Shown one piece after another: positions 30,836 through 62,816 of a stretch of DNA of 64,000 nt. How positions within the stretch are numbered: position 1 is the stretch's first letter; every line of letters starts with the position of its first letter. The DNA is from a virus. Under the pieces are notes generated by a model that worked only from the letters and a program-made list of their open reading frames with translations, was not told where the DNA came from and did no database searches. The stretch spans positions 1 through 64,000 of the IMG/VR virus record IMGVR_UViG_3300009157_000002; one strand, 5' to 3'. A program made the translations under genes and the position numbers.

Positions 30836-30858
30836 TTATTTAGAATCATTCTAAATAA
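30836..30858. promoter_or_regulatory. 23-bp Fur-box-like palindrome, copy 1
   Basis: TTATTTAGAATCATTCTAAATAA. Confidence 0.75.
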
Positions 30859-31093
30859 GGTTAAAAAGCTGTTTTAAGTGCATCTACGTTCAAATGGCTT
30901 CATTTGGTTGACTTTTTGAGTAAATAAAAAAAAAGGTAATCATATTGAACCATTACTCAATAGATGAACGTAGAATAGGGTAAATTCCTGAATTATAGAA
31001 ATTAACTTTCCTTTTAGCTCAAAATAAAGCTCAAAAACCCTCAAATTGAACGAATTTTACCGGCTGGAGACAAAAATACATAGCCGCTTATAC

Positions 31094-31121
31094 TTGTCTT
31101 ATAATTATTATTATGTTAAAT
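31094..31121 (+). other. dif-like XerC/XerD recombination site
   Basis: TTGTCTTATAA-TTATTA-TTATGTTAAAT: 11-6-11 spacing with a canonical XerD arm. Confidence 0.7.
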
Positions 31122-31631
31122 AGAATTGAACTATCAATGTTTTCTTGCCCATTTAGGCAGTATTTAGCTTATCCCCTACCCTATCGCTTTCCTTTTACAG
31201 TTGTAGAAATATAAGATCCCCTATAAGGCAAAATATATAAGGCATGAATAAATAAGCTAATGAATAATAGATCGTGGAACTAAGCGCAGGAAAAGCCCCT
31301 AAAAAAAGCATTCTTTTTTGTACAGGGGGCCGCCTTGATTCAAAAATACATTCTCTTTTTACTGACCGGCAGGGGTCATATTATACCATTATACTCCTAC
31401 TAAGACAAATCCACTTTGGTTATTGGTATTGTTGATTGATTCCTGCTAGTACCTTTTCAATTTAGGATTGGTATTGTTGTTAGATTGTATTCTTACTAAC
31501 ATAATCTTTCTCTTGGTTATAGGGAACAATAGTTGGTTGTTGGGTGTTACTCTTTACTAAGACATTTCTGGTTTATGTAGTAGAATAATTGTCTTTTGTT
31601 TGTTATATAATCTTGGTAGGGTTAACGAGGG

Positions 31632-31916
31632 TTATGGTCCCTTTTCACAGTCCCTTTGTTCTTTTAATTCAAATCGTTTAACCATTCTGTTATACATTTT
31701 GAGTTCAAAGGAAAGATCTTCTTCATATCGGATAGCTCGTGTTTGCCATTCTTGAAAGCAGGTTTTACAGTAGTAAGAATTTAACACGGCGATATAAAAT
31801 CCAGTGGTGGGTTTTTCAATACAGGAGTCGCAGAAACCGGGACCAATTTGCATGATTTCCTGATCTGACATTTCCAAAATGAGGAATCCGGAAGAGTGGA
31901 TGATTTGTTTAGCCAT
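31632..31916 (-). CDS. Zn-finger hypothetical protein
   Basis: CDSC...YIAVLN..YCKTC. Confidence 0.6.
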   Translation of the reverse strand: MAKQIIHSSGFLILEMSDQEIMQIGPGFCDSCIEKPTTGFYIAVLNSYYCKTCFQEWQTRAIRYEEDLSFELKMYNRMVKRFELKEQRDCEKGP

Positions 31917-32016
31917 GTATATTTTTTATATCCGAGCCATCTTAGATACTCCCTATATGTGATCGCATATAATTTCGTGTTTTTGCCCAAAATCGATGCG
32001 ATCACATATAATAAAC

Positions 32017-32217
32017 TTAGGTTATTGTGTTTCTTTGATCAATTTCTGCCTTTATCATAGCACATATTTCAAAGTTTTCTGCTTGCTCGTTGGTTATGAG
32101 CATATTTTCCAGCCAATCTGTCGGACATGATCTAAATAATAAGGGATAGTTATTACAAAATAGTTTCATCTCAAATTCTTCGGCGAAACAATTGTGTTCA
32201 GGTAGAAATACTTTCAT
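32017..32217 (-). CDS. Small protein with a UVR-like C-terminus
   Basis: ENFEICAMIKAEI. Confidence 0.45.
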   Translation of the reverse strand: MKVFLPEHNCFAEEFEMKLFCNNYPLLFRSCPTDWLENMLITNEQAENFEICAMIKAEIDQRNTIT

Positions 32218-32226
32218 TGGTTGGGA

Positions 32227-32763: not shown

Positions 32764-32937
32764 GGCATTTTATTTATTGCTTCGATTATACCTTTAAATG
32801 TTAACAACAATACTTCTTTCTTTGCAGATGGATCTATTTGCACGTAAACATCATAAACATCGTTTCCTTCCTCCGATTTTTTTATTGATGGATGTAGTTC
32901 AACTTTTGCAATCAATTTTACACTCATAGTCCTTTTG

Positions 32938-33321: not shown

Positions 33322-33614
33322 TATGTTTTTGTTATTATTAACCAGGTTGAAAATACTACAAATGCAATAGCGATTATCCCTACAACAATTGCCTCTACCT
33401 TTTTTCCATCAAACACCCATGTATTCCTAATTCCAGCAAAAACAGCTAATAGAACAGATCCTCCAAGTAGAGAGAATATAATTAAGGGCAGGATTCCTAC
33501 GTCTATATTGAATAGCTTTCCTGCCGTTATTCCAAGGACTAGCAAGACAATTAACGTGATGGTGTAGTATTTATATTTCTTTAACGCTTCCCAAATTCGT
33601 TTTAACGTTTTCAT
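33321..33614 (-). CDS. Three-TM membrane protein
   Basis: Three hydrophobic helices. Confidence 0.55.
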   Translation of the reverse strand: MKTLKRIWEALKKYKYYTITLIVLLVLGITAGKLFNIDVGILPLIIFSLLGGSVLLAVFAGIRNTWVFDGKKVEAIVVGIIAIAFVVFSTWLIITKT

Positions 33615-34821: not shown

Positions 34822-34847
34822 AGAGTGATAGTGTTGGTTTTAAATTA

Positions 34848-35636: not shown

Positions 35637-36494
35637 TTAGACAAAGAGATTTTGTTGCGAAACATAAGGAGTAAGCCTCTTTATAGTCATTTCGCAATAC
35701 TCTTTGCTTATTTCGGACATCACACATTTTCTATTCATTAAATGACACATTTTTGCAACCGTTCCACTCCCACCGAAAGGCTCATAAATAACATCACCTT
35801 CGTTGCTCCAACTGTAAATATGGTCCTGTGCTAACTCTTCTGGAAAAGGAGCAGGATGCCCTGTTGGATTGCTTCCCGTTCCATAGCACCATAAATTCGC
35901 TCTGCGGCTAAATTCTGGAGTGGTGAAAAACTCATTCTTTTTAACGTTTGCCCCTTTATTTATAACCGCATCCTTTTTTCTTTTTGTCCCTACTGTCTTA
36001 TTTACATGGTCGCATATAAAATTTATCGTTTTCGGTTTCCCTTTACTTAGAACAAACATATACTCAATCACATTGTAGTATCTTCCTTCTGTTGGTATTC
36101 TTGATGCTTTCTCGTAAAACATGGTATCATATAAGTTAAAGCCAATTTCTTTAAAGTATAAAGCCTGTTTAAATGAACTTCCTGTTTCGCTTCCATTTAT
36201 AGTAGCATCACCCACAACCCATATTACTACGCCGCCTTCTTTTGTAATTCTAAATAAGTTATCCGCCACATTTTTAAAAAAGAATGAATACCCATTATAT
36301 ATCCTCATTTGATCATACGGCGGTGAAGTCACCGTTAAATCAATGCAGTTATTCGGCATCCTAATCATAGTATCAAGGTTACTCTCATTATAAATCTCAA
36401 TGCCGGAGTGCTTCCAAAAAGGCTCTGTATAAATTTGCATTGGCAATATGCCTGCATGATGATCTAATTTCAATTTGTCACTTTGCATTGTCAT
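35637..36494 (-). CDS. DNA methyltransferase (N4-C/N6-A, beta class)
   Basis: TVTSPPY, HPAPFP and EPFGGSGT motifs. Confidence 0.9.
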   Translation of the reverse strand: MTMQSDKLKLDHHAGILPMQIYTEPFWKHSGIEIYNESNLDTMIRMPNNCIDLTVTSPPYDQMRIYNGYSFFFKNVADNLFRITKEGGVVIWVVGDATINGSETGSSFKQALYFKEIGFNLYDTMFYEKASRIPTEGRYYNVIEYMFVLSKGKPKTINFICDHVNKTVGTKRKKDAVINKGANVKKNEFFTTPEFSRRANLWCYGTGSNPTGHPAPFPEELAQDHIYSWSNEGDVIYEPFGGSGTVAKMCHLMNRKCVMSEISKEYCEMTIKRLTPYVSQQNLFV

Positions 36495-36604
36495 TTTTAT
36501 AACTCTTCTTTAATTTTATTTATGTCTACAGTTTTAAGCCACAATACAAAAAGATTGCTGCTCCTTTGCCTGGACTAACTTTCGCGCGATTGCAGAAAAT
36601 TATT

Positions 36605-36622
36605 TTACATTTTTAAATGTAA
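36605..36622. promoter_or_regulatory. 18-bp operator copy in a divergent promoter region
   Basis: TTACATTTTTAAATGTAA, the exact reverse complement of 20558-20575; -7 TACATTTG at 36639-36646. Confidence 0.7.
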
Positions 36623-36707
36623 ATGTAATATGAAAGTTTACATTTGTACCAATTTTTTCGAAATAATAGTTTACTTTTTTAAAATCTAAAATAAAACTAA
36701 CTTTTTA

Positions 36708-37237: not shown

Positions 37238-37434
37238 GCGAGGTAAGCGAGCAAATAATTTTTTTACGAAAAACAAAAAAAATATCACAGGCAAAACTTG
37301 CCAAGGTATTAGGGATAAGTCGGGGATACTATATAAGAATGGAGAGTAATGACGACCTGTTTACAAAAAAAAGGATCAAACAGATCGGGGAGTATTTTGG
37401 TAAAAAAGTTTTAATATTATTTATAGATGAGTAA
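37234..37434 (+). CDS. XRE HTH regulator
   Basis: LRKTKKISQAKLAKVLGISRGYYIRME. Confidence 0.75.
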   Translation: MSEVSEQIIFLRKTKKISQAKLAKVLGISRGYYIRMESNDDLFTKKRIKQIGEYFGKKVLILFIDE

Positions 37435-38059
37435 ATACCAATTAACAGAACAACTTAACGGGCGCGTTGATGTGTGTTTAAAAGAAAAAAGGCATAGCTA
37501 TATAAATACCATAAGGGCTGGATTGGATCACTATATTGAAGAATATAAAAGAGCCTTGAAGTATGAAGAACCTCAAAATGTAGCCTGCGGCTTTTACGGA
37601 TTGGTTGATGAAAAGTTAAAAGAACAGAGTGTATCGGATTTTGCAAGCTGTAAAAAATCCTGTAATTTTTGTTGCAGAATAGCCGTTAATATAAGCAAAG
37701 AAGAGGCTTATCTATTAAGAAATGAATTTAAGGATATAGTTAATGAAAAGCAGTCACAACTAGCTATTCAGAAATCCTGTAAAACTGCGGAGGATTGGAA
37801 TAAACTCTCTTATAAGGACAAGGCTTGTATTTTTCTTGGAGATGATGGAGCTTGCAGAGTTTACCAATACAGACCTATTAGTTGTAGAAAATATCATGTT
37901 GCATCACCAGCAGAACGGTGTGATAATGAAATAAATCCTGAAGGCATAGTAGCTGGTTTAGTTCACGACGAAGTTGAAATTATCGCTTCCGCTATTATTA
38001 ATGTAAGCGAAGTTAAATTACTTCCTGAAATGATTTTAAAAGCAGAACTAGAAAAATGA
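37427..38059 (+). CDS. YkgJ/CxxCxxCC cysteine-cluster (Zn/Fe-S) protein
   Basis: CKKSCNFCC...CIFL...CRVYQYRPISCR. Confidence 0.8.
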   Translation: MSKYQLTEQLNGRVDVCLKEKRHSYINTIRAGLDHYIEEYKRALKYEEPQNVACGFYGLVDEKLKEQSVSDFASCKKSCNFCCRIAVNISKEEAYLLRNEFKDIVNEKQSQLAIQKSCKTAEDWNKLSYKDKACIFLGDDGACRVYQYRPISCRKYHVASPAERCDNEINPEGIVAGLVHDEVEIIASAIINVSEVKLLPEMILKAELEK

Positions 38060-42855: not shown

Positions 42856-43197
42856 ATGTATTATATATTAGATGGGAAAACACCGAAGCGTGTTGATTTG
42901 ATGGAATGGGCTAAGTTTATAGAAACCAACTGTAATCGTCATATTGGCGATACTCTTTTGAAGGTGAATAGGCATGTAAGAGTACGCATATCAACCATAT
43001 TTTTAGGACTTGATTATTCTTCCTTTATTGGAGGACCGCCAATACTTTTTGAAACCATGATATTCGGAATTAAGGATGATAGCTACCAATGGCGATACAC
43101 CACCTGGGAAGCGGCAGAGAAGGGCCACAAGTATGCTGTAAACCTTGCTAAAAACCATATTAAATGGATGCAAAAAACAATTAAGACCAAGGGTTAA
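42856..43197 (+). CDS. Conserved phage protein
   Basis: ISTIFLGLD..PILFETMIFG..RYTTWEAAEKGH. Confidence 0.65.
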   Translation: MYYILDGKTPKRVDLMEWAKFIETNCNRHIGDTLLKVNRHVRVRISTIFLGLDYSSFIGGPPILFETMIFGIKDDSYQWRYTTWEAAEKGHKYAVNLAKNHIKWMQKTIKTKG

Positions 43198-43427
43198 TCC
43201 TCCTGCTCTTCCAAATTTTTTTCCTCTTCTTTCATATCCCTGGTTTCCTTCATCTGCTTATAAGCAATATTCGAAAGTATCCGTATTTCTGTTCTAAGAA
43301 CAAGGTATTGTTTTCTTAGCCGGGTAAGGTTTACGTAACTGTTAGCCACGTCAACCGAAGCTGCCGCATGATCCATAGCCACAATAAGTTTGATAAGCTC
43401 TTTGTGTTTTTCTAAAAAGAATCCCAT
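43194..43427 (-). CDS. Small helical protein
   Basis: Divergent from the palindrome pair; -7 TATTTTTG at 43441-43448 (-). Confidence 0.45.
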   Translation of the reverse strand: MGFFLEKHKELIKLIVAMDHAAASVDVANSYVNLTRLRKQYLVLRTEIRILSNIAYKQMKETRDMKEEEKNLEEQED

Positions 43428-43450
43428 ATCTATTTTTAGACAAAAATAAC

Positions 43451-43509
43451 TTATTTAGAATGATTCTAAATAATGTATTATATTTGTTATTTAGAATCAT
43501 TCTAAATAA
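43451..43509. promoter_or_regulatory. Two Fur-box-like palindromes flanking a TATATTTG -7 element
   Basis: Copies at 43451-43473 and 43487-43509; TATATTTG at 43479-43486. Confidence 0.8.
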
Positions 43510-43514: not shown

Positions 43515-43784
43515 ATGGAAACAGCTACAGAAAAAAAGCCCTGGGTATCAGAAGGCATAACAGAAAAAGATCTCTGCAATCTCACCAAATATTTTCGAAC
43601 GCATATCTTAAAAGTAGAAGTTGCTGACTTCGCAAAAAAGGCGGGAATTCCGAGTTATCGAATTTCAAATTGGGAAGCACATAAAGTCACCTCAACACCA
43701 TCGGATAAAATCGGACTAGCCGCAATACGAAAGATCGCAGACGCTTACGGATATGATGCTGAAATAGTTCTCACTAAAAAATAA
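43515..43784 (+). CDS. XRE-like HTH regulator
   Basis: VADFAKKAGIPSYRISNWE...IRKIADAYG. Confidence 0.7.
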   Translation: METATEKKPWVSEGITEKDLCNLTKYFRTHILKVEVADFAKKAGIPSYRISNWEAHKVTSTPSDKIGLAAIRKIADAYGYDAEIVLTKK

Positions 43785-44311: not shown

Positions 44312-44746
44312 ATGGAACTAACGAAACAGGAAGCACAGAATTTATTTAACGACATTCAACCATTAACCAAAGCACCCATTGGAGCGCTTTACCCAATATC
44401 GGCGGTTGTTGCAGAAAATTATATGATATTAAAACGCGGTGTTATAGAAGATATAAAGCGCCGCCACGCTAAAATTATATTTGAACTGGCAAAAAAAGAT
44501 GAGAAAGGTAAACCCATAGAAAACCCTAAAGGTGTTTATGATTTTGCCGATAACACGGAAGAAGCCGAAAAACGGTATACTGAAATGATGGATGAAGTTA
44601 TTGACATCAAGTTTGCAACCATTACCGAACGTTATGCGTTAGAATGCAAAGCTCCTTCCGAATATTTATTTCCGCTTTACAAATACATCATTATACCAAC
44701 GCACCCACAAACGGTTATCTCAGAACCTCAACGGGTACAAGTATAG
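44312..44746 (+). CDS. Hypothetical protein (DUF1617/chaperone-like)
   Basis: AKKDEKGKP motif. Confidence 0.45.
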   Translation: MELTKQEAQNLFNDIQPLTKAPIGALYPISAVVAENYMILKRGVIEDIKRRHAKIIFELAKKDEKGKPIENPKGVYDFADNTEEAEKRYTEMMDEVIDIKFATITERYALECKAPSEYLFPLYKYIIIPTHPQTVISEPQRVQV

Positions 44747-47135
44747 TGTTCCAGTTAGTAGATTTATTGCACACATATCGCATTTGAGTGGTCTTTGCAG
44801 CCGATTCAGAGGTGTTAATTGGCTTAAGGTGTGAGAAGCAAATGGAAGCGATATATGCGTATGTAATAGAGTCGATCACATCATCGAAATAATACTTGGG
44901 ATCATCAACCTTAAATACCTCAATTCCGCTCTGTGTAGTTTTACGGACAAATGTTTTTAGCTGAATAAAAAACTCATTAACACGAATATTGCCAGCGTGC
45001 ATTTCCATAAGCTCCAGTAGCTTATTTGTTATATACCGGGAGGTTCCGGCCTTTTTACCGATCCCAATAGGTTCGGCACTATTCATTTGCAGATAATCAG
45101 GGAGCATAGTCTGAGGGATAAGTGTATTATAAAGCCCAAGCTCATCCACCATATTTATATATTCTCCACCAACGTTAAACTCTGGTAGTTCTTGAGGATG
45201 TCCGTAATAAACTCCGAGTAAAACAGATTGCAGATAATCATACCTGTAATCGTGTGTACGGTGATTAAGACATGCGGAAACAGTGTTTTCTTTAGCATCC
45301 CATATAGCACTGGAAAACTTAGAGTGCCCACTTTTCGCAAAAATAGGATCCGTACCTTTATAGTAACGATTCAACCATTTTTGTTCCGGATGATTAACAA
45401 TTACGGTAGTGGTACGATCATCAATATCGGAAGTAGGAATAAAATTAGCACCTCTTATCCGGAAGGGCACATATCCGGTAAGCTTAACACTGGTATCGTA
45501 GATTGGCTCAAAGTATCCGTACTGCGGCTTCTGTTTAACAGGAAGTAAATTGATACGTTTTATATGATCATTAAGAGTGTCAAGGGGGATAATGGTTTCT
45601 GCATTTCTTAAAAACATATCCTCAATGGTAATGGGATGATGCTGGTGAAACTGAACCTTAAATTTTATCTGGCCGCTGATTTTCCACTTCTCATAGTAAA
45701 TCGCTTTTTGTTCATCGTAGTATTCCTGGGTTACACCGGGTCGGGCAAAAAAATCAAAGAACACGGGCACCACGCCGCTACTAAACTTCCGTTCGCTCCA
45801 CATATTAAGCGCGGCACGAAATTCCGTTTCAAAAGCGTCTCCGCCTTTTTCCATATCGCCACCAGTACCCCAGCCGATTAACTGACGAACTAATTTTAAC
45901 CTTTTAAGCTCATAATCGTAAGCGTATAAAGTTGGCAGTACTTCATTGATCATACTGGAGAGATTGTTGATCATACCTACCTCATCGAGCAATACCATTG
46001 TTGGTGAACCACCATTTATCTCAATCTCGTTGGGAACTCCAACCAATATCCTGCTATCGGCTCCACCTCTGGTTCCTTTTTTACCATCTATCTTTCGGGA
46101 AATTTTAAATAATCCATCCCTGTCATTACTTACCGAACACTTGATCCAGTCAGGCAACGAGTAAAAAGAGAATTTAATCTTATCCTCAAAAATTTCCTCT
46201 CCCTTCTTTTTATCGTGTGTAATAAATTTAATAAAATGTGACCGATGGAAATTTGTTTTTTTGATCATAATGGCACCCATCGTAGTGGTAAAAAAGATCT
46301 GGCGACCTTTCCCGATCATTAAATTATACCCCGAATCGGTTAGGAATAAAAGTACCTGTTGCGCATCGTAAGCGATATACTTCCGGGAACCACCTGTAGA
46401 TTTATCATCTTTAAAGCGCACATATTTATCAAGAAAATAAAGTGTGTTTTGCTGAATCCTGTTTTTTTCGCGCACCACGAATTCCCAACGTTCATCCCTG
46501 GTTTTACAATTTTCATAAAGATCATTTTTCGCGATCCATATTTTAGACTGGAGCACATACTTGTTAAATCTTTCGTATGGAATCCGATTTAAAAAGCCTG
46601 AATTGATCGAATCAATCCAGCGTATAAATTCATCCGGATAGTTTTTTTCTTCAATCGGCAAGGGCATCCATTCGCGACTATCAATCTCATCCTTTTCGAC
46701 TAGCTTGGCAAGTTCTTTCTTTCGTTCCTTTTCCCTTTTATAAAGCTCCTTTGTAACATCATCAATGCTTTTTATGATCTTGCCATTATTAAGCTTAACC
46801 CTTTGTTTGGATTCTTTGATAAATCCAGCATCAATAAGTTCCATTTTTTTTTGTGATCCTATCTCATAACCTGCCGAATAGAGATCGAATAACCAGGTTA
46901 ACCGCTCTTCATTAACCAAAGGCTGTGCTGCCTGAACCCTGATACCCGGATCAACAGTAGATATAACCGGCAGGTAGTTTTCACGGACACCGCTTTTATA
47001 TTTTAGTACAGATTCCTCATCATACTCATAGCGCCCATCTGCCTGTAAAGTACCACCAATATAACCTGTGGCATAAAGATTATAAAGCTTAACCCTGTCA
47101 ATTCCTAGAATAGCACGAACTTCTTTTGCTTTCAT
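44715..47135 (-). CDS. terL: Terminase large subunit with N-terminal HTH extension
   Basis: Walker A MIGKGRQIFFTT, Walker B VLLDEVG, coupling motif GTGG and RNase H nuclease GTDP...DDVID. Confidence 0.85.
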   Translation of the reverse strand: MKAKEVRAILGIDRVKLYNLYATGYIGGTLQADGRYEYDEESVLKYKSGVRENYLPVISTVDPGIRVQAAQPLVNEERLTWLFDLYSAGYEIGSQKKMELIDAGFIKESKQRVKLNNGKIIKSIDDVTKELYKREKERKKELAKLVEKDEIDSREWMPLPIEEKNYPDEFIRWIDSINSGFLNRIPYERFNKYVLQSKIWIAKNDLYENCKTRDERWEFVVREKNRIQQNTLYFLDKYVRFKDDKSTGGSRKYIAYDAQQVLLFLTDSGYNLMIGKGRQIFFTTTMGAIMIKKTNFHRSHFIKFITHDKKKGEEIFEDKIKFSFYSLPDWIKCSVSNDRDGLFKISRKIDGKKGTRGGADSRILVGVPNEIEINGGSPTMVLLDEVGMINNLSSMINEVLPTLYAYDYELKRLKLVRQLIGWGTGGDMEKGGDAFETEFRAALNMWSERKFSSGVVPVFFDFFARPGVTQEYYDEQKAIYYEKWKISGQIKFKVQFHQHHPITIEDMFLRNAETIIPLDTLNDHIKRINLLPVKQKPQYGYFEPIYDTSVKLTGYVPFRIRGANFIPTSDIDDRTTTVIVNHPEQKWLNRYYKGTDPIFAKSGHSKFSSAIWDAKENTVSACLNHRTHDYRYDYLQSVLLGVYYGHPQELPEFNVGGEYINMVDELGLYNTLIPQTMLPDYLQMNSAEPIGIGKKAGTSRYITNKLLELMEMHAGNIRVNEFFIQLKTFVRKTTQSGIEVFKVDDPKYYFDDVIDSITYAYIASICFSHLKPINTSESAAKTTQMRYVCNKSTNWNTILVPVEVLR

Positions 47136-47196
47136 TATTTCTATTTAACAATCGATTATAAGCTCAAAAACAGATATTTAATATAACAAAAATAAC

Positions 47197-47219
47197 TTAT
47201 TTAGAATGATTCTAAATAA
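47197..47219. promoter_or_regulatory. Fur-box-like palindrome between divergent terL and structural operon
   Basis: TTATTTAGAATGATTCTAAATAA; -7 elements at 47187-47194 (-) and 47232-47239 (+). Confidence 0.8.
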
Positions 47220-47312
47220 GGAATTTTTAATTATATTTGTTTTCTAGTATTCTAAATACTCTTTTTTGATTGGGAAATAGGGAGAAAACCATAAACCTAA
47301 AACAACTACAGC

Positions 47313-48062
47313 ATGCACTACTATAAACCAGCGAACCTACTAGGCTCCGTCGTTTACAATCCCCTTTTAGTAAGCGGGGGAGATGTATCCATATCAAAAG
47401 GAAGAATATTTTTTGGTGGTCTGCCAGATGGGATTAAACTCTCTGATATAAAAAGTTATACAAGGACTGTTTATGCTGCGGGTACGCAAGAGGTAAGAAC
47501 CTTGGATTTAACAGGTATAGCCGTAGCCAACAGCACTCAGTACAGAATTATCATACAACGATTAGATACAGGGGAAAGAAAAACCTACCTTATTTTTACA
47601 GAGCCTTCCGGAAATACCGCTTCAACCATAGCTGAACAGATAAGACTTGCGATCAACAACGATCCAAGCAGAATTGCAACCGCTACGGGAGCAACAGATG
47701 TCGTAATACTAACAGAAATAAACACCGATACAAAGGGATTTATTTTTACAGAAATCCCAATTGGGGCTACTGACGTAGATACCACTCCGCATGTTGAGCC
47801 AAGCGGTACATATCCAGAAGCTTTTGCTTATGACCCTATCAATTCCGTTCCGGCAGGACAATACACCAAGTATACCATCGTGTATAAAAAAGATGTAAAC
47901 AATGCAGGGAATTCAGGAGGCGGATACGCATGGGTAGTAGCTGTTATTTTCGCAGACGAGGGAGATGCTAACTATGGCGATTTTGATGATGCTTTAACAG
48001 CTATTGTAACCGCATCCGGTGTTACCGATGCAGTAGCAGAGCCTTACGTACAGATCGCGTAA
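47313..48062 (+). CDS. Virion structural protein (auxiliary capsid-like)
   Basis: T/A/G-rich and beta-rich; own terminator; first gene of the structural operon. Confidence 0.5.
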   Translation: MHYYKPANLLGSVVYNPLLVSGGDVSISKGRIFFGGLPDGIKLSDIKSYTRTVYAAGTQEVRTLDLTGIAVANSTQYRIIIQRLDTGERKTYLIFTEPSGNTASTIAEQIRLAINNDPSRIATATGATDVVILTEINTDTKGFIFTEIPIGATDVDTTPHVEPSGTYPEAFAYDPINSVPAGQYTKYTIVYKKDVNNAGNSGGGYAWVVAVIFADEGDANYGDFDDALTAIVTASGVTDAVAEPYVQIA

Positions 48063-48071
48063 TAAAAAAAT

Positions 48072-48109
48072 AAAGACGTACCCTGCTTGAATGCGGGGTG
48101 CGTCTTTTT
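48072..48109 (+). terminator. Intrinsic terminator
   Basis: AAAGACGTACCCTGC-TTGAAT-GCGGGGTGCGTCTTTTT. Confidence 0.7.
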
Positions 48110-48116
48110 ACTATAT

Positions 48117-48674
48117 ATGGGAAAAGTCTATCTATTTAGGCCGCGTAACCAACACTCTTTGTTGACCGACTATCCGGAACTTAAAGGGATTAAGGAGTTT
48201 AGGCTTTCGTCTAAACAGATGGCATTTGTTAATCTATATGCTAATCCAACAAGCGAGTATAATGATGTTAAGCCAGAAAGAACACGACTGGAAAAATGTA
48301 TAAAGAAAGCTTTTGGAAATTCACTTCCAGAGAACGAAAAAGCAAAGTACTTGGTTGGCGAATTCCCTTCGTACATCATATCGGCTATCAATAAGATGAA
48401 GAGTTTTAACCCTGATGCCAGGTTTAGATCCAGAGCCATTATCAATAAAGTGTTTGATAAGCTGGAAGGACTCGTTGATATGGAGGATGAGGAAATGAAA
48501 AAATTGCAGATTGAGGATAAAAAAAGATATGCCGAACTCTTAATAAAAATAGCCGAAGGGCAACAAGGATTAATAAGTCAACTCGAAGGTGGTTATGGAA
48601 TAACAGAGGACGAAGACAATGGCCCTGGTGATGGGTCTGCAATGATGGAACAGGCACTAGAGCAAGAGATATGA
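48117..48674 (+). CDS. Pre-portal protein (possible small terminase)
   Basis: Likely ATG at 48117; helical with acidic tail; ATGA-coupled to the portal. Confidence 0.45.
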   Translation: MGKVYLFRPRNQHSLLTDYPELKGIKEFRLSSKQMAFVNLYANPTSEYNDVKPERTRLEKCIKKAFGNSLPENEKAKYLVGEFPSYIISAINKMKSFNPDARFRSRAIINKVFDKLEGLVDMEDEEMKKLQIEDKKRYAELLIKIAEGQQGLISQLEGGYGITEDEDNGPGDGSAMMEQALEQEI

Positions 48675-50905
48675 ACACGAACCTGATAGATCAAACGATT
48701 AGGCCAAATCGTCTTGAGACAAAAGACAAGGGTAAGGAATACCACGCCCAATATGGCAGGTGGGGTGTGGCTTCTGCGATTAACCATCCGCTTCATCGTG
48801 CTTTTGTTATAAACACTATTATATACTGGCGCTTTTATTCTAACGACCAATGGATACTTGATGATGATCTGGAAGGATTTTTATCTGACGAAACCGGGTT
48901 TGCCAGAAACCGCTTAAAGCTACGGGAAAACATTATCATGCCGATGGTTAACCAATTTGAAGGTAATGCCATACGTCTTGATTTTAATGCCAAGGCTGTA
49001 AACGTATCACCCTATGTAATTAACAGGCGTGAGAACCAGCTTAGGGAAAAATTGATGATGAATGATGTCGCGGAGGCGGCACCTTCAATGAAAGAGCACA
49101 TAAAAAACAAATACGGTATCGGTGATACCAAGGCTGAAACAGAACAGCTATTTAACCATTCCTTTGTTGATGAGCACACCCGCGATATCAATGAACTTTT
49201 AGTATGGTCTAAAGGCCGGAATAATTTCGAAGACAACCTGACAAGAATTGCCACACACATGGCAATCAGCGGAATCGGTATACATAAAGGCTATGAGCAG
49301 GCAGGAGAACAACAGTGGGAGGTAACGGATTCCCTCTTTTATTTTTTTGATCGCGGCGCAAAAAGACCGGACCTGAAAGATGCAGGGTATATGGGAGAAC
49401 TACTTTTTGGAAACCCGGCAGAGGTGTTTGAAAAATATCAGGACTTAACACATGATGAACGCAAAAGGATTGAAAACTATTGCATAAACAATTATGATCA
49501 CATCGGGTACCTCTGGCACTTGTTTATGGCAAACAAAGATAGGGTTCCTATGTACGAAATATACTGGAAAGATATTGAACGACAAGAATATGGATATGTG
49601 ATGGATGATTACGGGTATGAGTTTTTTACGCAGATCAACGCAGAAGGAATAAAATATACTGATAAAGATCTGATCATACCCAAAGGCGAAAATTATAAAA
49701 AGGTTCTTGGCAAAAAAAACAAAACAAAAAAAACAGTAAAGTTTGTTGACGTGCTAAGATTTTGTGTTTTTACGCCATCCGAAATTATTGGCGGGGCAAC
49801 CGGAGAAGATATTGTTTATGACTATGGTATTGCAAGATATCAGGAAACCTATAATCTGGACCCATCGTTAGTTGAATATCCATATAAAGCAAGATGTGTG
49901 CATTACCATAATGGGGAAATATTAAGTCCGATACAAAATGTAATAGATCCACAACGGATGCTAAACCGTACCCTGTCAGTACTTGATAGTCACATGAATA
50001 ATGCGATGGGTTTCGGGCCTATTATAGATACCAGTGTAGTGAGTGCCCAGGGTGCGCAAAATGAAGTGATCCGGAACATGAATTTAAGCAAGCCTGTATT
50101 TGTTGACGCTAAACGCGGAGGTGTGCAAAACATGACGGGGAACTACGGCTCTAACGCAAGTCAGCAAATGGGAGCATTTATGCAAATGGCCCAACTAATG
50201 CGAACCGTTGCACAAAATACAAGTGGTGTAAATGAATCCATGCAAGGCACAGCCGGCGGCTCCAATAAGCTTGTAGGAGTTGAACAGCTTAAAATAGACA
50301 GGGGCTCTTTACAACAGGAGGGCTTTTATTATTGCCTTAACAATATTATGCTACAAACATTTCAGTCAGTAGCTACCCAGGGAAAACGTATTTATGCGGA
50401 TAGCCCGCGAAGGCTGTCAATGATTGTTGGAGATGTTGGAGCTAAAGAGATTCGCATTACCAAGGAAATGAACAACGAAGATTTCCGGGTATTCGTTAAG
50501 AAATCTATTCCAGATAATGAGGAAAAGATGCAGGTAAACGCTTTAATCTTGCAGCTTAAACAATTTGACCTGATCGGCGAAAAACAAGCAGCGGATTTAT
50601 TTAATCGTGGCGACATGGAATTGGTTGCGGAGAAAATGCGTGAGTACTTTAATGAGAAACAAATCGCTGCCGTTCTGGAATCTAAAAAAGCAGAGGCGCA
50701 AAATCAGGAAGTTATGGCTGCTGCATCACAGGATAGTGAGCAGGCTAAAATCGAAATGGAAGAACAAAAACGTTATCAGGAATATTTAATAAACAAAGAA
50801 GCCGAGAATAAAGATCAAAATCAAATGGTTAAGGATGCCGGGAAGCTACAGCAGATTGCAAAAAAGCAAGAAGGAGAAATGCTGAACAATCAGTTTAAAG
50901 TGTAA
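48671..50905 (+). CDS. Portal protein (podovirus-type)
   Basis: 744 aa; FYSNDQW, ENIIMPMVN, PQRMLNR and SGVNESMQG motifs; C-terminal coiled-coil barrel. Confidence 0.8.
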   Translation: MNTNLIDQTIRPNRLETKDKGKEYHAQYGRWGVASAINHPLHRAFVINTIIYWRFYSNDQWILDDDLEGFLSDETGFARNRLKLRENIIMPMVNQFEGNAIRLDFNAKAVNVSPYVINRRENQLREKLMMNDVAEAAPSMKEHIKNKYGIGDTKAETEQLFNHSFVDEHTRDINELLVWSKGRNNFEDNLTRIATHMAISGIGIHKGYEQAGEQQWEVTDSLFYFFDRGAKRPDLKDAGYMGELLFGNPAEVFEKYQDLTHDERKRIENYCINNYDHIGYLWHLFMANKDRVPMYEIYWKDIERQEYGYVMDDYGYEFFTQINAEGIKYTDKDLIIPKGENYKKVLGKKNKTKKTVKFVDVLRFCVFTPSEIIGGATGEDIVYDYGIARYQETYNLDPSLVEYPYKARCVHYHNGEILSPIQNVIDPQRMLNRTLSVLDSHMNNAMGFGPIIDTSVVSAQGAQNEVIRNMNLSKPVFVDAKRGGVQNMTGNYGSNASQQMGAFMQMAQLMRTVAQNTSGVNESMQGTAGGSNKLVGVEQLKIDRGSLQQEGFYYCLNNIMLQTFQSVATQGKRIYADSPRRLSMIVGDVGAKEIRITKEMNNEDFRVFVKKSIPDNEEKMQVNALILQLKQFDLIGEKQAADLFNRGDMELVAEKMREYFNEKQIAAVLESKKAEAQNQEVMAAASQDSEQAKIEMEEQKRYQEYLINKEAENKDQNQMVKDAGKLQQIAKKQEGEMLNNQFKV

Positions 50906-50922
50906 ACTAAAAAATAATTACC

Positions 50923-51120
50923 ATGATGAAAGTACTGATCATTATACTCGAATGGATTAAAGCACATCCTGAAATAGTTACTACTCAATTAGCTGTTCTT
51001 TGGGAGATTATATTTCGGGTAAAGCCCACAGAAAAAGACTGGTCAATTATTAACCTAATCAAAAGAATTTTAGATAAAATTTTCAAGAATAAAAAAACTA
51101 TAGGCGGATGTCACCTTTAA
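50923..51120 (+). CDS. Small holin-like protein
   Basis: Amphipathic; overlaps the endolysin start. Confidence 0.35.
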   Translation: MMKVLIIILEWIKAHPEIVTTQLAVLWEIIFRVKPTEKDWSIINLIKRILDKIFKNKKTIGGCHL

Positions 51121-51473
51121 AGAGTATTAGGGAAAGACAATCAGTATTCGTGCTTAATATTGCATTACTTATTCAACATACCTACTCAATAGGTTACGAA
51201 CTTACTTTTGGGGAGGCGCTAAGAACACCAGAACAACAAGCTATTTATATAAAAAACGGCAGATCAAAAACAATAAACAGTAAGCACCTTACCAGACTAG
51301 CAATTGATTTAAACCTATTTAAAGATGGGGTGTATCTTACAGCTACCGAAGATTACAGACTACTTGGCGATTACTGGAAAAACCTAAACCAGGAGAATGT
51401 TTGGGGTGGAGACTTTGGCGATGGAAATCATTTTCAAATGACTAAAATAGAAATGAAAGTTACAGCGGCTTAA
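51108..51473 (+). CDS. Endolysin, M15 family peptidase
   Basis: RTPEQQ, SKH...LAIDL, WGGDF and DGNHF motifs. Confidence 0.85.
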   Translation: MSPLKSIRERQSVFVLNIALLIQHTYSIGYELTFGEALRTPEQQAIYIKNGRSKTINSKHLTRLAIDLNLFKDGVYLTATEDYRLLGDYWKNLNQENVWGGDFGDGNHFQMTKIEMKVTAA

Positions 51474-51722: not shown

Positions 51723-51953
51723 TTAAAGTTTGGTGTTAAGAACTCTGGCAATATTTAATAAAGTGGAAAGCGTTGGATTGTAAGTGGGATCATTTTCGAT
51801 GTGTTGAATAATTCTGGTAGAGGTATCAATATAAAAAGCAAGTTCAGATTGCGACCATTTTCTTTTTTTCCTCACCTCCTTAACCAAGGGCCCGATCAAC
51901 GCCATTCTCTCCATAAGAAATCCTTTTTTTTCTTCACGGGTCAATTGTTCCAT
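51723..51953 (-). CDS. XRE HTH regulator
   Basis: Likely start MEQLT at 51953; VRKKRKWSQSELA...IEN..NPTLSTLLNIARVL. Confidence 0.8.
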   Translation of the reverse strand: MEQLTREEKKGFLMERMALIGPLVKEVRKKRKWSQSELAFYIDTSTRIIQHIENDPTYNPTLSTLLNIARVLNTKL

Positions 51954-51957
51954 GTTT

Positions 51958-51986
51958 TTATTTAGTGATTCTAAATAACAAATATA
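51958..51986 (-). promoter_or_regulatory. TATATTTG -7 element plus Fur-box-like palindrome with a 2-bp deletion
   Basis: Minus strand reads TATATTTG-TTATTTAGAATCACTAAATAA-AAAC-ATG. Confidence 0.65.
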
Positions 51987-52016
51987 AAAATAAAATTTCA
52001 AAATGTGCGGTTTAAG

Positions 52017-52065
52017 GCGCGCTTTATATAGCGTTTTAAATACGATGTATGGGATGTTCCTTTGT
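52017..52065 (+). promoter_or_regulatory. Putative late-promoter motif, copy 2
   Basis: Matches 9461-9511; upstream of scaffold and MCP. Confidence 0.6.
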
Positions 52066-52082
52066 ATAAAAGCAATAGCGCC

Positions 52083-53294
52083 ATGCCAGAAACAGCCGAG
52101 CAACAAGTAACAGCAGCAACTACCGAAACAGAAAATAAAGAGCCAATTACTGCCGAAAATCAGCCACCGGTTCAAGAGGTTCAACAGATTCAGCAAGAAC
52201 CTCTAACACCGCAAGGCCAGCAACTTGCAGAGCTGTTGAACTTTGTAAAAGCCAATCCGGAGGCAGCAAAAACACCCGAAGTAAAAGCCTTACTTGATGA
52301 TCTGGAAAAATTTAAAGCTGCAAAAAATAAAACTAATGTCCAAACGGATGCTGCAATTCCTTCTGAACCTCTTAAGCAAGAGGAAGCGCCACAAACAGAG
52401 CCAGAAGTTAAAAAACCAGAAATCAAATCTGCCTTTTTCGGGGCACCAGCCTCCAACAAAGTAGAATTTAAAACTCCGGAAGAATGGAAAGGCTACATCG
52501 ACAAAAAATTTTCTATTAAAGACGAATCTACTTTTTTTGATTCTGTTGAAAAGTGGAGAAAAGACAGCCAGGAAAAAGGCGACCTGGAAAGAGACAAAAA
52601 TAATTACGACAGGTTATTTGAAGAAATACCAGAGCCCATTTACAATGCAATAGAAAGCTGGGGCAAAGGAGAAGATTGGATCGATAAATTAAAAAAAACG
52701 ATACCAAGTATTGACTATAACAAAGATTTTGAATCGCAAAGTATATACGAAATAGTGAACAACTATTTCCCTGATAAATTTGAAAGGGAGGAACTATCAG
52801 GCTCCTACAAAGATTTCGACATTACCGTACAGAAAGCAGTAGACGTTGCAAAAGAGAAGTACAACTTTGAAAGACAGCAGTTCAGTAACAGACGTGCTGA
52901 GGTTCAGAAAAAAGCGGATGAGCAAATTCAGAAGCTTCGAAATTCTGCACTCAGTTCCGTAAAAAAACTAGAACAATCATTTCCTGATTTTGACAAAAAC
53001 GAGATCGCGCAGATCTCTAAAGTCCTAAACAGTGGTGACACAAGCAGCCTGATCCAGAACAAAGATGGAACCTACAAAGAAGATGCGGCGGAACGGGTTG
53101 CATATATGCTTTTCGGTAAAAGAGAGATCAGCAATTTGAAGCAGTTAATGGGAGCTTCGCAGCAACAGTTACAAGATACTGTTACCAGAAAAAGTGACAC
53201 CCCGCGTATTCACGGCAACCAGGACTCCACAATTACACCTGAGAAAAAAGCGGCGGAAAATCTTCAAAGGCTAGTCCCTAAAACCTACTACTAA
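52083..53294 (+). CDS. Scaffolding-like protein
   Basis: Acidic E/Q/P-rich N-terminus and coiled coil; directly before the MCP. Confidence 0.65.
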   Translation: MPETAEQQVTAATTETENKEPITAENQPPVQEVQQIQQEPLTPQGQQLAELLNFVKANPEAAKTPEVKALLDDLEKFKAAKNKTNVQTDAAIPSEPLKQEEAPQTEPEVKKPEIKSAFFGAPASNKVEFKTPEEWKGYIDKKFSIKDESTFFDSVEKWRKDSQEKGDLERDKNNYDRLFEEIPEPIYNAIESWGKGEDWIDKLKKTIPSIDYNKDFESQSIYEIVNNYFPDKFEREELSGSYKDFDITVQKAVDVAKEKYNFERQQFSNRRAEVQKKADEQIQKLRNSALSSVKKLEQSFPDFDKNEIAQISKVLNSGDTSSLIQNKDGTYKEDAAERVAYMLFGKREISNLKQLMGASQQQLQDTVTRKSDTPRIHGNQDSTITPEKKAAENLQRLVPKTYY

Positions 53295-53312: not shown

Positions 53313-54566
53313 ATGTCACAAATATATACCCCCACCATACCCCCTTCCAATGCGTTAAGCAATATTGACTTAAACGCATTTGGCTCTAACTATGCAAGCT
53401 CCTATGGTCACAACGTAACCGGTCTAATCAGACGAGAAGTACAGCGTGTAATTTACGATGCCGCTCCCAAGGGATACTTTACGGATTTGCAACTTCTAAT
53501 GCAAAAACCAAGAGAAAAATGGCCGACCGATGAAGCATATTATGACGAACGCACCTTTGGGCGCAAGCCTATTGTTGCAACCGCTAACGTAGCAGGTGGA
53601 ACTCAAACACAGGTAATTCCTGTTACTAACCTGAGCACCTCTGCTGTCTCTTTAAATTTTATTGTTGTTTATCCGAATAACCAAAAAGGAACGGTAATAG
53701 CAATTGATCAGACTCTTAATACGATCACCGTAAAAGCATATACCAATCAGGTACTACCTGCTGTAACGGCGACCGATGTTATTTCTCTTCAATCAAGTAT
53801 GCTTGGCGACAGCAGAAACAGAATCGACACCTATTCACGTATTGACGTAATTGAACGTTACAACTTTATCCAACAATTTGCCCGTGCAACACGCTTCGGA
53901 AAAATGGAGTTGTATAAATACAAAAACGTAGGCACTACCAACTTCCTGGATGAAAACAAAAGGGATGTAATGGATCAGTACCGAATAGATCTTTCTAACT
54001 CTTGGTGGAACGGAGAACGCGGTGAAGCTATTATGGACGATGGTACCCCGACCAAAACAATGGGTGGAATATTTCCAAGCATGACAGCGGCAGGATCACC
54101 AAGCACGATCACTACTATTGCCACTATCGGAGATGCGATGGAAGATATTGTTTTGGCAACTCAATTCGGAACATCTTCTCAGCGTAAATTCTTGTTTGCT
54201 ACTCCTACACTTTTACACGGTTTATCCAAGTTTTATAAGAGCGCTCTTACCCGTTACACTCCGAATGATATGATCGCTAAACTAGAGCTGAACCAAATAG
54301 AAATGCAAGGTGGTATCGTTGTTTTAGTTCCTATGCAACGCTTCCAGGAAATTTCCTGCTTCCCTGCATCATTCGCAAACAGAATGATCCTGGTTGATAT
54401 GGAAAATATAAGCTGTGCTGAAACCTGGGGAGAAGACATTGTAGATGAGACTCCGGATATTTCTTCCGGAATCAATCAGAACACTTACAAAGACTTCTGG
54501 ATCACAGGTCAGTTAAGTATGAAAATGCCTAACCCATTATCAAATGGATGGATTGATGTAGTTTAA
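53313..54566 (+). CDS. Major capsid protein (HK97 fold, SU10/DUF5309-like)
   Basis: NFIQQF, WWNGERG and TMGGI motifs; position; followed by a strong terminator. Confidence 0.8.
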   Translation: MSQIYTPTIPPSNALSNIDLNAFGSNYASSYGHNVTGLIRREVQRVIYDAAPKGYFTDLQLLMQKPREKWPTDEAYYDERTFGRKPIVATANVAGGTQTQVIPVTNLSTSAVSLNFIVVYPNNQKGTVIAIDQTLNTITVKAYTNQVLPAVTATDVISLQSSMLGDSRNRIDTYSRIDVIERYNFIQQFARATRFGKMELYKYKNVGTTNFLDENKRDVMDQYRIDLSNSWWNGERGEAIMDDGTPTKTMGGIFPSMTAAGSPSTITTIATIGDAMEDIVLATQFGTSSQRKFLFATPTLLHGLSKFYKSALTRYTPNDMIAKLELNQIEMQGGIVVLVPMQRFQEISCFPASFANRMILVDMENISCAETWGEDIVDETPDISSGINQNTYKDFWITGQLSMKMPNPLSNGWIDVV

Positions 54567-60900: not shown

Positions 60901-62785
60901 CATACCGATAAAAGTATTTGGGGGCGAAGGAATTATAGGAGAATCGGTATTTGCTCCCCTGGATCTAACCAATAACGATGAGGGAACGATGGACACAACC
61001 TTTTCCATTAACATAGGCTGGCCGTATCGGGCTTTTCAAATCAACCCGCGCGTGTATATTGTTAACCGTGCAAACGGGGTAAGTAATTTTATTAACGACA
61101 ATAACGAAGTAAAGCTTTTTGCTTCCTCAAGTGTTTTAGGTGGGAAAATGAGACAGTTATTAGCAATGTACACCTGCGAAAGCAGGATAGATATGTGTTA
61201 CGCCTATAACCTTGAAACGGGTTCACTAAGCCATGATATGTACTTCCCGCAAGTCCATTACATTATGCGGCCAAACCAGTGGAGTAACCCCGATAACATA
61301 CAGGCACAGTATTTTGTTGATTATCCATCGGAAGAAACAATTTGGGGAAACGGAGGTTTTCGCTTTCTTCCTCAAACGCTACTTGACTATTCACACCTTC
61401 CTGAAACACAAACGGCCACCGGAAAACCGAAGATTGGGTTTAAAGAAGAAACGGATTTTTGTACACGCATTATCTGGAGCGAACTAAGACCAATCAACAT
61501 TGTAAATGCACCAGGAGTAAGGTCATTTAACCCACTTAACTTTTTTGATATTTCCGATAATACAGGGCAAATAAAATATGCCTATGATGATCGGACGGAT
61601 AAGAACGGTGCCAATCTATATGCGTTTACCAATAGCGGAGTTTGTTTGTTAATGACAGACAAAAGAGTTTTACATGAACTTACAGGTTCTCAACTTGCTG
61701 CAATGGGATCGGATGAGACAAGTGTGATCCTTCAACAAATATGGATGTCGAAAGTGATTGGGATGGACGATGAAATGTGGAGAAGTGCGGCAGAACACAG
61801 TAATGTGATCTGGTGGACGAACTACGATTCAGTATATCAACTGGAAGACGGCAAGATCACAGACATTGCCAGAGCCTCTCATTATCACAGCAAAATTTAT
61901 AACGAATTTATTGATACCATTCAGCCAGGATATCAGGATGATGTGATGGCTATTTTCGACACCTTAAATAACGAATATTGGGTTGGAGGTAGAAGGCATG
62001 CCCCGCTTAAAAGAAGCTTTTCATTTGCTACAAACTTAGTTTCTGTCAAAGATATATTTATTGAGTACACTTCCCTGGTACCATTGGGAGTACTAACGGT
62101 GTTACCAGGAACACTGGTGCCAGGAGATTCTATTTATATAGAAGTTTCTTTAGCATCCGAAAGTTTCAAGATTATTTTTATTGGTCCCTCCATTTTGATC
62201 GATGCAGAGCCGGGAGACATCTGGAAGATTACACTTGGAGTTGGTAGCGTTTTTCAACCTTATCCATTTTCGGCCACCAAAGTAAATGGCAAAATGTATG
62301 TTTATTCAAACGCGGAAGACAAAAAACATTTTGTAGGAACATTCGATTATAGCTACGACAAATTTGTTTGCGTAGATAATATTGTGCTTGGAGCAAGGCG
62401 TATGGAAACAGATACGCTTAACGAAGGATTTGTAATAAATGGGACCGACATCTTTGGATATTCAACACAGGTTTATTCGCCAGAACAATTTAAAGATAAA
62501 GAATTTATCCGATACCGTGCCAATACCGACACCAAGCCATCGCGGGTAGAATTCTTTTATAATATGGACGAGTATCACAGCGAATCACCCATCTGTATTC
62601 TGGATACTACAGCAAACGATTTTGCCTTACGTAACCGGAACGGTTGGGAACAATATATCAATCGTGAAGATGCGGTAACAAGGAAACGCGCGCAAGGCAG
62701 ATCGCTTATTGTAAAGACTATACATGACCGTCCAGAGGATTACAAAATGATCGACGAAGGAATTCAGTTCAAGGTTATTAAATAG
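57914..62785 (+). CDS. Large tail nozzle/muzzle (stabilisation) protein
   Basis: About 1620 aa and beta-rich; N-terminal FFRG..D...YIDANNMR; follows the ring proteins. Confidence 0.65.
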   Translation: MPQLQHFKWLLKHFFRGAEPDNNKELSGEKDSGAYIDANNMRYDNEAGENYVLKKINGEENKYPNVDNACTTNTMLPLSTSYKCIGIAKFFSQEDKRYHEIEFWADTLAVDPSLIRIDGKIVLRSVRFPIDTDHPLQIAVNDSCIGGEIYTVDFLHSPMLFNLKDLMVNSSMLPDESGNLICTQKYFNEFNISEFLLELNLPVDHPVFVQLSTSAPFGEDSTHLVFLNPSGGFKVGQVQYAIRFVTSQGDKTAWSMATPLIAIPFRLTTENPPYPWVRSIGAPPTTVTPYGVHFRFRCVNILNYDFIQVKRISYVTNSALGTLGIEEQLATNIDITNGQIGIIDVYDRASIGIPLSDNQAITGLAGIETAKAIRYLNQRLFLLNVKYSTRDLDNTVIFKTINGEETFPVIQNIDKGGHNDPYTRSYYKSEIRGEKASHSVTFFDNKGISSFAVPLTTNYQFPNRRDELAAGSNSETYSQDGVVKAANVNGSVTNTFEVFDLSNAITKTDACSFKNILKDITVLGVHVAGKGVDKVNAVDCNPVSASHPPSNLYTTDSVGYQPFRPTGQGDSGTTSHDYWINTKVRRTGGTDDIDYNPKGFAPTYYSMGLGMAGVDVNSLPYWVQSFSINRSKSAKRVFCQGLGYYKLVTATGLSTNTSKVLEQIWFHSPDIHQQALAFIQTVVDDVAAGGTRFKLQLVSPLGFFSEVYNGDLATTGASNQIDMINYCRIIRENGDINTGDGDGNVGINGGDGYGYVAYGKWRNPNKPNNVQRFAECGDGNQLFDITSIASTMVGRQEFYTIATSITMFNHQLVGGTAHDFDDENVKKFHEPVYMVNIIDTQADIPNTNINDYLETSHYQKIDAIIGKSNASKLQVFPLVDERREDCIPDVGNSAQNCIAFVKFNGSVSAWLNVVEKSPAQLLVILNGIQAGTLTVTFNGVVYTIKGVYTSTKTTISIVQSEYEIVFDAALNPGLLYPPSMFVPLLDSFITVKYDSSIPIKVFGGEGIIGESVFAPLDLTNNDEGTMDTTFSINIGWPYRAFQINPRVYIVNRANGVSNFINDNNEVKLFASSSVLGGKMRQLLAMYTCESRIDMCYAYNLETGSLSHDMYFPQVHYIMRPNQWSNPDNIQAQYFVDYPSEETIWGNGGFRFLPQTLLDYSHLPETQTATGKPKIGFKEETDFCTRIIWSELRPINIVNAPGVRSFNPLNFFDISDNTGQIKYAYDDRTDKNGANLYAFTNSGVCLLMTDKRVLHELTGSQLAAMGSDETSVILQQIWMSKVIGMDDEMWRSAAEHSNVIWWTNYDSVYQLEDGKITDIARASHYHSKIYNEFIDTIQPGYQDDVMAIFDTLNNEYWVGGRRHAPLKRSFSFATNLVSVKDIFIEYTSLVPLGVLTVLPGTLVPGDSIYIEVSLASESFKIIFIGPSILIDAEPGDIWKITLGVGSVFQPYPFSATKVNGKMYVYSNAEDKKHFVGTFDYSYDKFVCVDNIVLGARRMETDTLNEGFVINGTDIFGYSTQVYSPEQFKDKEFIRYRANTDTKPSRVEFFYNMDEYHSESPICILDTTANDFALRNRNGWEQYINREDAVTRKRAQGRSLIVKTIHDRPEDYKMIDEGIQFKVIK

Positions 62786-62816
62786 TATATTTGTTATTTA
62801 GAATGATTCTAAATAA
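62786..62816 (+). promoter_or_regulatory. TATATTTG -7 element plus Fur-box-like palindrome
   Basis: TATATTTG-TTATTTAGAATGATTCTAAATAA. Confidence 0.8.

Follow-up and report, generated by a model that had tools for sequence, protein, structure and literature searches.

The virus genome IMGVR_UViG_3300009157_000002 of the IMG/VR database is a 73,948-bp record (37% G+C) that has terminal repeats and is rated complete, and the window analyzed here is its first 64,000 nucleotides (64 kb). Scattered through the window is a palindromic element, TTATTTAGAATSATTCTAAATAA, called the box below, which resembles the operators of the bacterial iron regulator Fur. It is present in exact form at positions 30836, 43451, 43487, 47197 and 62794, the same five that were given in an earlier reading made from the DNA letters alone (the sequence-only reading). 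By chance 0.00 matches are expected and none of 100 dinucleotide-preserving shuffles contained any; the pattern is real and far beyond chance. Three other copies are imperfect. The copy at 51958, TTATTTAGTGATTCTAAATAA, lacks two left-arm bases, the 2-bp deletion that had been described before; the copy at 47240, TTTTCTAGTATTCTAAATAC, is shortened, its right arm being whole and its left arm lacking 3 bases; and the copy at 72014-72036, which lies outside the window (L424 10015-10037), is TTATTTAGAACGATTCTAAATAA and has one mismatch. Five copies fit all 18 specified positions of ATTTAGAAT-N-ATTCTAAAT and one fits 17. Every copy is in non-coding DNA, as judged with a crude gene set that covers 87% of the genome, in agreement with the intergenic placement claimed earlier. 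The central base pair is G:C in all copies, in either orientation, and each G/C-centered box can be seen to have one GANTC across its dyad, a motif that is not enriched genome-wide (ratio 0.88). When up to one mismatch is allowed, the 74-kb phage has six sites, as against 1-3 each in five bacterial genomes of 3.1-7.5 Mb (two of Chryseobacterium and one each of Sinomicrobium, Sphingobacterium and Persicobacter).

The boxes stand on promoters in two layouts. In the first, the box is directly 3' of the -7 element, over the start site: TATATTTG ends exactly at the box start at 43487, 62794 and 47240 and likewise on the minus strand at 51958. In the second, found at 43451, 47197 and 72014, the box lies over the -33/spacer region. 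The boxes at 43451 and 47197 are preceded by CAAAAATAAC, the common flank that the sequence-only reading had seen at both; as this is a minus-strand -7 element plus 2 nt, the box covers the spacer/-33 region of the minus-strand promoter at 43427 and of the terL promoter. At 72014 the box adjoins a near-consensus AATATTTG, and 11 nt beyond the box there is a perfect TATATTTG. There are 115 -7-like motifs on both strands genome-wide (7.8e-4 per position and strand); at this density, four exact abutments in a set of eight boxes far exceed what chance would give. Of the eight non-coding -7 motifs of the late half (43-74 kb), seven, all but the one at 54564, touch a box; in the early/lysogeny half none of about ten abuts one. 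Solely from the TAnnTTTG form of the -7 elements and from where the box occurs, we infer that the host belongs to the phylum Bacteroidota.

The first late promoters lie in a double-box interval. The minus-strand -7 element TATTTTTG (43441..43448) serves P0082, a divergently transcribed 77-aa protein of no known family (43194..43427, minus strand), and is 2 nt from box A (43451..43473, G center), which covers about -35 to -15 of this promoter and, in the plus-strand promoter, the -33 region. The -7 element of the plus-strand promoter, TATATTTG (43479..43486, plus strand), lies between box A and box B (43487..43509, C center). Box B directly follows that element, over the start site, and ends 5 nt before the ATG (43515) of P0081, an 89-aa XRE-like helix-turn-helix (HTH) protein (43515..43784, plus strand) encoded by the first gene of a four-gene unit. 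Judged by its predicted position, a start-site box such as that of the P0081 promoter can only repress. Next comes the gene of the 806-aa large terminase subunit TerL (44715..47135, minus strand), a T4 gp17-like ATPase: a profile of the protein plus 27 homologues matches T4 gp17. Its -7 element, TATTTTTG (47187..47194, minus strand), is 2 nt from the perfect G-centered box at 47197..47219, which separates the terL promoter from the divergent promoter of the portal operon. The -7 element of that operon, TATATTTG (47232..47239, plus strand), is directly followed by the shortened box (47240..47259). The operon (47313..51473, plus strand) encodes 249-aa and 195-aa proteins, a P22-type portal-like protein (48671-50905), a 65-aa protein and an endolysin-like protein (51108-51473).

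The copy with the 2-bp deletion (51958..51978) lies, on the minus strand, after a -7 element at 51979-51986 and 4 nt before the start codon of P0083, a 76-aa XRE-family HTH protein (51723..51953, minus strand). A 157-aa ORF (open reading frame) that begins with TTG at 52196 (51723-52196) over-extends this gene across the box, and the ATG at 51953 is the likely start. On the other side, a TTG-initiated ORF at 52062 probably starts at the ATG at 52084, which opens a head operon running to 62785 and including a putative SU10/crAss-type major capsid protein (53313..54566, plus strand). The portal and capsid assignments are predictions from Atlas look-alikes (feature score 0.98, TM 0.75-0.84). Directly after the stop codon of a 1635-aa gene comes another TATATTTG (62786..62793, plus strand) followed by the perfect G-centered box at 62794..62816, which heads a unit beginning at 62855 and encoding proteins of 260, 589 and 2089 aa; the first (62855..63637, plus strand) has a weak glycine-zipper match. 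The one-mismatch box (72014..72036) heads an operon that crosses the record ends into window positions 1-9126 and carries tail and structural genes. The sequence-only reading had the boxes abut -7 elements at 43487, 51958 and 62794, as all three do, and had named terL, the structural operon and two XRE regulators among the units controlled. The identity of terL and the two small HTH proteins stand, but the -7 element abutting the 51958 copy serves the minus-strand XRE gene rather than the head operon, and the broken box there belongs with it.

A Fur box predicted in Riemerella anatipestifer is ATTTAGAATTATTCTAAAT, and Fur of that bacterium shifted four promoter fragments in electrophoretic mobility shift assays (Guo et al., PMC5609570). 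Binding by Fur at the rhuB promoter, which carries ATTTAGAATTATCCTAAAT, is Fe2+-dependent (PMC10986502; this study has no data on nqr, cytochrome or suf genes). The phage box and ATTTAGAATTATTCTAAAT are identical at 18 of 19 positions, the sole difference being the central base, and the Flavobacteriia Fur box that the sequence-only reading had cited is thus a published one. At seven promoters the phage boxes abut -7 elements or stand at most 13 nt away, which fits the Fur-box rule of promoter-proximal sites within about 100 bp of the start codon. The inner 17 bp of the box also equal the consensus of the ICE site, TTTAGAA-N3-TTCTAAA, a target of the Fur-family protein Irr whose effect is positive or negative depending on its position in the promoter (PMC1698941).

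Bacterial genomes, one per species, were scanned for the perfect 19-mer, which returned at least 120 loci. Among the matches listed, about 70 are in Bacteroidota of all orders and about 19 in alpha-proteobacteria, and nearly all the sites are intergenic. Genes adjoining the Bacteroidota sites, again among the matches listed, include 9 TonB-dependent receptors, imelysin, 3 hemA, nrdD, 7 nqrA, 7 multiheme cytochromes, 2 sufB and a DUF4856 gene. Note that the initial choice of large ORFs favored receptors, a bias lessened by the later classing of all flanking ORFs against exemplars. As the 19-mer adjoins TonB receptor, heme, respiratory and Fe-S genes, it marks an iron-related regulon across the phylum; the sequence-only reading had proposed that a true Fur box should be found upstream of iron genes in Bacteroidota, and so it is. 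In six of the seven genomes with an nqrA site (L069, L076, L085, L113, L028 and L095), the -7 element of nqrA begins 74-77 nt after the box start, which centers the box near -78 in an activator-like layout. At the receptors and imelysin the box is 14-47 nt ahead of the -7 element. Bacteroidota host genomes have 2-4 Fur-family genes each, so the binder may be a paralogue.

The box is widespread among viruses. The exact 23-mer is present in at least 116 IMG/VR stretches and the 19-mer, with any center, in at least 120. Several of the carriers of the 23-mer are proviruses found in the genomes of isolates. The two scans together gave 213 box-bearing viral loci, which fall into 54 groups by shared proteins; 15 groups include a locus with at least two boxes. 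The commonest box neighbors are terminase (TerL, 55 loci) and portal (22 loci). In a lineage unrelated to this phage (G001/G002/G004) 4-5 boxes precede the same three orthologous genes, and the box lies upstream of the -7 element at a spacing of exactly 7 nt in G004 and of 9-15 nt in G002. The fetched viral loci span a few kb around each box, and the comparison of shared regulators is limited to that span. Within it, no protein resembling those that flank the boxes of this phage was found, and BLAST and phmmer searches gave as families common to this phage and the box-bearing loci only methyltransferases, one giant protein and a few scattered matches to early-half ORFs. Likewise, G000, G003 and the G004 lineage have no families in common except large proteins and methyltransferases. 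Methyltransferases are the only family that this phage has in common with several other box-bearing phages.

Two loci of other viruses show more elaborate uses of the site. Four boxes, one perfect and three with one mismatch, are packed into 150 bp of another phage (L380 3683-3829, also L334 and L326), within a 450-bp non-coding region beside a 68-aa gene; the whole looks like a graded operator array. In a Lewinella metagenome-assembled genome (L056 4202-4220) a perfect G-centered box lies 34 bp upstream of the gene for a CI-like repressor (HTH_3 and Peptidase_S24), 15 bp from the 19-mer end, and thus at the lysis-lysogeny switch of that prophage. Nothing relevant came from a literature search on Fur boxes of Bacteroidota phages and prophages.

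We think it probable that a host Fur-family repressor, either Fur or a paralogue, binds the boxes. A site kept letter for letter in unrelated phages that have no common regulator points to a conserved host protein: the 23-mer is found in many phage groups, the XRE-like protein P0081 is nearly an orphan, and no Fur-family gene was found in six box-bearing phage records searched, on which ground a phage-encoded Fur was rejected. The box would be a consensus-strength Bacteroidota Fur-family operator of 7-1-7 build set on nearly all the late promoters. As placed by the phage, it would cover the core promoters of terL, of the portal/lysis operon, of two virion-protein operons and of two small HTH genes. 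Given the position of the box, a dimer bound on the start site or on the -33/spacer region would block RNA polymerase. Relief could come from loss of the metal-bound form, from titration during replication of the phage DNA or from modification of the sites. Both the binding of a host protein and the repression we infer solely from sequence features, and the overall interpretation of the sequence-only reading, in which host Fur represses virion assembly genes, is partly supported.

Several observations weigh against this reading. A search for the host with the TerL profile found no match in 401 sampled Bacteroidota genomes. The sequence-only reading had suggested looking for positional conservation in related phages; TerL relatives at 40-45% identity have no boxes, and so none was seen within this lineage. 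The head operon (ATG 52084) has its own promoter, which lacks a box and gives no support to control of the structural operon. Iron-loaded Fur repressing virion genes would block lytic growth in iron-replete cells unless relieved. Two small XRE-type genes lie beside boxes and their negative autoregulation would look identical. The remaining points concern the center of the box. In scans that left the center free, it is G or C in 105 of 125 viral sites versus 45 of 123 bacterial genome sites (Fisher p ~1e-14), and when related viral loci are grouped, 32 groups have G/C centers versus 11 with A/T centers. Viral sites also favor C and G three bases outside the 19-mer, which extends the consensus to C-TT...AA-G. 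The phage boxes therefore do not show the unconstrained central base of host Fur boxes, and because a neutral center would not yield the G/C skew, the phage sites may be read by a different protein or bound in a special mode.

A phage-encoded repressor, whether P0081, P0083 or a protein not recognized as such, might instead time the late genes, the likeness to Fur sites being convergence or mimicry. The promoters of both small HTH genes have a -7 element and a box directly before the start codon, the usual picture of autoregulation, and perfect boxes occur as a tandem pair only once, on either side of the P0081 promoter. Moreover, identical multi-copy operators are typical of phage repressors, and the G/C center and longer consensus separate phage from host sites. 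However, position beside the boxes is the sole link of P0081 and P0083 to the site. The two proteins are not related to each other, a search of 1.84 billion representatives gave one true homologue of P0081 and a search of IMG/VR no close relatives of it, and the P0083 promoter holds a broken copy. The operator is not confined to phages that encode a related repressor: the same 23-mer recurs in at least 116 viral stretches from dozens of phage groups, with no P0081 or P0083 relative in the fetched loci, and G000, G003 and the G004 lineage have no family in common besides large proteins and methyltransferases. This weakens the XRE-binder alternative of the sequence-only reading, and we regard a phage-encoded repressor as rather unlikely.

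The phage also has a separate palindrome family, TTACATTT-N2-AAATGTAA, which argues against the box being the operator of its own repressor. Two copies are present (20558-20575 and 36605-36622), with an additional half-site near 36637. The first is upstream of a 193-aa HTH gene (20661-21242) that adjoins a tyrosine integrase gene (21855-23243), which marks the phage as temperate; the second is in the divergent early control region 36495-36707. By this placement the palindrome is the better candidate for the immunity operator of the phage, distinct from the Fur-type box.

A second alternative is that another host protein, a Fur paralogue of PerR/Irr type or an unrelated respiratory regulator, reads specifically the G/C-centered dyad, in which case the phage would track redox, heme or respiratory status instead of free iron. 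The host sites themselves are divided by central base. Those of nqrA, cytochromes and sufB are G/C-centered in 12 of 16 cases, with 4 A/T-centered, whereas those of receptors, hemA, imelysin and nrdD are A/T-centered in 13 of 14 (Fisher p = 0.0002 for the split, although orthologous host sites are not independent and the association may be inflated). The nqrA centers are G/C in six of seven sites, and in five of the six at fixed distance, yet alternate between G and C, which argues for selection. These data suggest that the Bacteroidota iron regulon is split, in a way not recognized before, into uptake genes on one side and iron-rich respiratory enzymes on the other. By center, the phage boxes fall into the subclass found at the iron-rich respiratory genes of hosts, although here they occupy what appear to be repressing positions. 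The 2-4 Fur-family genes per Bacteroidota genome offer candidates for such a protein. Also in its favor, alpha-proteobacteria read the same dyad by Irr and not by Fur (PMC1698941). Against it, the arms are identical in both center classes, Fur-family dimers are not known to read the central base, and the only experimental data for the dyad in Bacteroidota are for Fur (PMC5609570, PMC10986502). On balance we consider a G/C-specific host protein doubtful.

If the binder is a host Fur-family repressor, as we favor, the boxes could in addition form a replication-coupled timer and a Fur sponge, a joint reading that we regard as equally doubtful. At low copy number, in the prophage or early in infection, host Fur would shut every late promoter. 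The titration idea builds on the great surplus of top-affinity sites that phage replication would bring: hundreds of genome copies with 6-8 consensus sites each would exceed the Fur pool and the late genes would be switched on. The host iron-uptake genes would be derepressed at the same time and feed the infection. A phage methyltransferase could lock the boxes in a non-binding state through the GANTC on the dyad. Two beta-class N6/N4 DNA methyltransferases are encoded (12180-13508 and 35637-36494), both CcrM/DpnA-like by sequence match to the PDB. The lock would resemble the Fur/Dam switch at the promoter of the E. coli sci1 type VI secretion system.

It is very improbable that the box has some other role, be it that of an RNA hairpin or terminator, of a site for packaging or replication, or of nothing but a DNA methylation target. 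In favor of such roles, it is a perfect inverted repeat, is often near terL in other phages and carries one GANTC per G/C-centered copy in a genome that encodes two methyltransferases. Against them, the hairpin is weak (-6.2 kcal/mol), lacks a U-run and would be cut short wherever a transcript begins within it, seven dispersed promoter copies do not fit pac/cos sites or an origin, the terminases of box-bearing phages are unrelated and GANTC is not over-represented. On these grounds an intrinsic terminator or structured 5' leader (the predicted starts are inside the left arm) and a pac/cos site or origin were rejected. A larger mobile cassette was rejected as conservation stops about 25 bp out, and an SOS/LexA-like box as the order of the dyad is reversed.

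Compared with the Riemerella Fur box, the phage copies have the same 19-bp dyad arms and 7-1-7 build, lie within about 100 bp of start codons and overlap Bacteroidota -7/-33 promoters. They differ in being on virion and packaging promoters instead of iron-uptake genes, and in being perfect, always G/C-centered, extended to 23-25 bp and about a hundredfold denser than in bacterial genomes. Phages are known to capture host repressor sites, such as the LexA boxes of CTXphi, coliphage 186 and GIL01 and, in Shiga-toxin prophages, the Fur box at the stx1 promoter. There, as here, the operator of a host stress regulator is found on phage promoters and the signal would be read without encoding a sensor; however, those sites are at a single switch promoter or cargo gene, whereas here the site is on almost every late promoter, and many unrelated Bacteroidota phages show the same design. 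Mycobacteriophages have stoperators and other multi-copy repressor sites, as in L5 and the dyads of Cluster O. These too are many identical short sites across a phage genome, but they are bound by the repressor of the phage itself, are specific to an immunity group and are often in transcribed regions, whereas the present box is common to unrelated phages and matches a host regulon site.

The LexA-like SOS boxes of Bacteroidetes, GGA-N5-TCC and CTAA-N5-TTAG (PMC8565304), are likewise AT-rich palindromes of the same phylum that serve a host repressor and bear on prophages, but their dyad is the reverse of the TTAG-N7-CTAA found here. The ICE site of Bradyrhizobium and other alpha-proteobacteria (PMC1698941) has the identical inner 17 bp and a Fur-family reader, and its position-dependent sign parallels the two layouts seen with the present dyad, near -78 at host nqrA and promoter-overlapping in the phage. 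The phylum and the regulator are different, and the promoters here are of Bacteroidota type. Moreover, Irr is active at low iron (PMC1698941), and therefore the sign of its iron response cannot be transferred to the phage box.

If a host Fur-family protein does bind the boxes, a large and diverse set of Bacteroidota phages, temperate ones included, would gate virion production through the iron/redox regulator of the host without encoding a sensor. In host-associated niches and in waters where iron is limiting, phage output would then be linked to the iron supply, and phage genomes would be potent Fur decoys. The site would also provide a simple late-gene switch for a phylum in which phage regulation is almost unknown.

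The closest TerL relative, P0002, has 53% identity. Among isolated phages, megablast of 20 kb found no relative, and tblastn of TerL gave a single match of 21% identity, in a Xanthomonas jumbo phage. Most virion proteins had no match in sequence searches of PHROGs, Pfam and the PDB.

The perfect C-centered box at 30836..30858 is in an ORF-poor part of the early/lysogeny half and abuts no -7 element, the nearest being at 30762 on the minus strand, about 67 nt away. It is contained in a 1.3-kb stretch (30346-31631) with no ORFs of at least 60 aa on either strand; within this stretch is a 38-aa hydrophobic ORF (30698-30814, minus strand). The stretch might contain an origin, non-coding RNAs or a recombination site. 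Finally, an early-operon protein encoded at 37427-38059 has a CxxCxxCC domain (PF03692, putatively zinc- or iron-chelating), which deserves note in a phage with an iron-regulator-type site on its late promoters.

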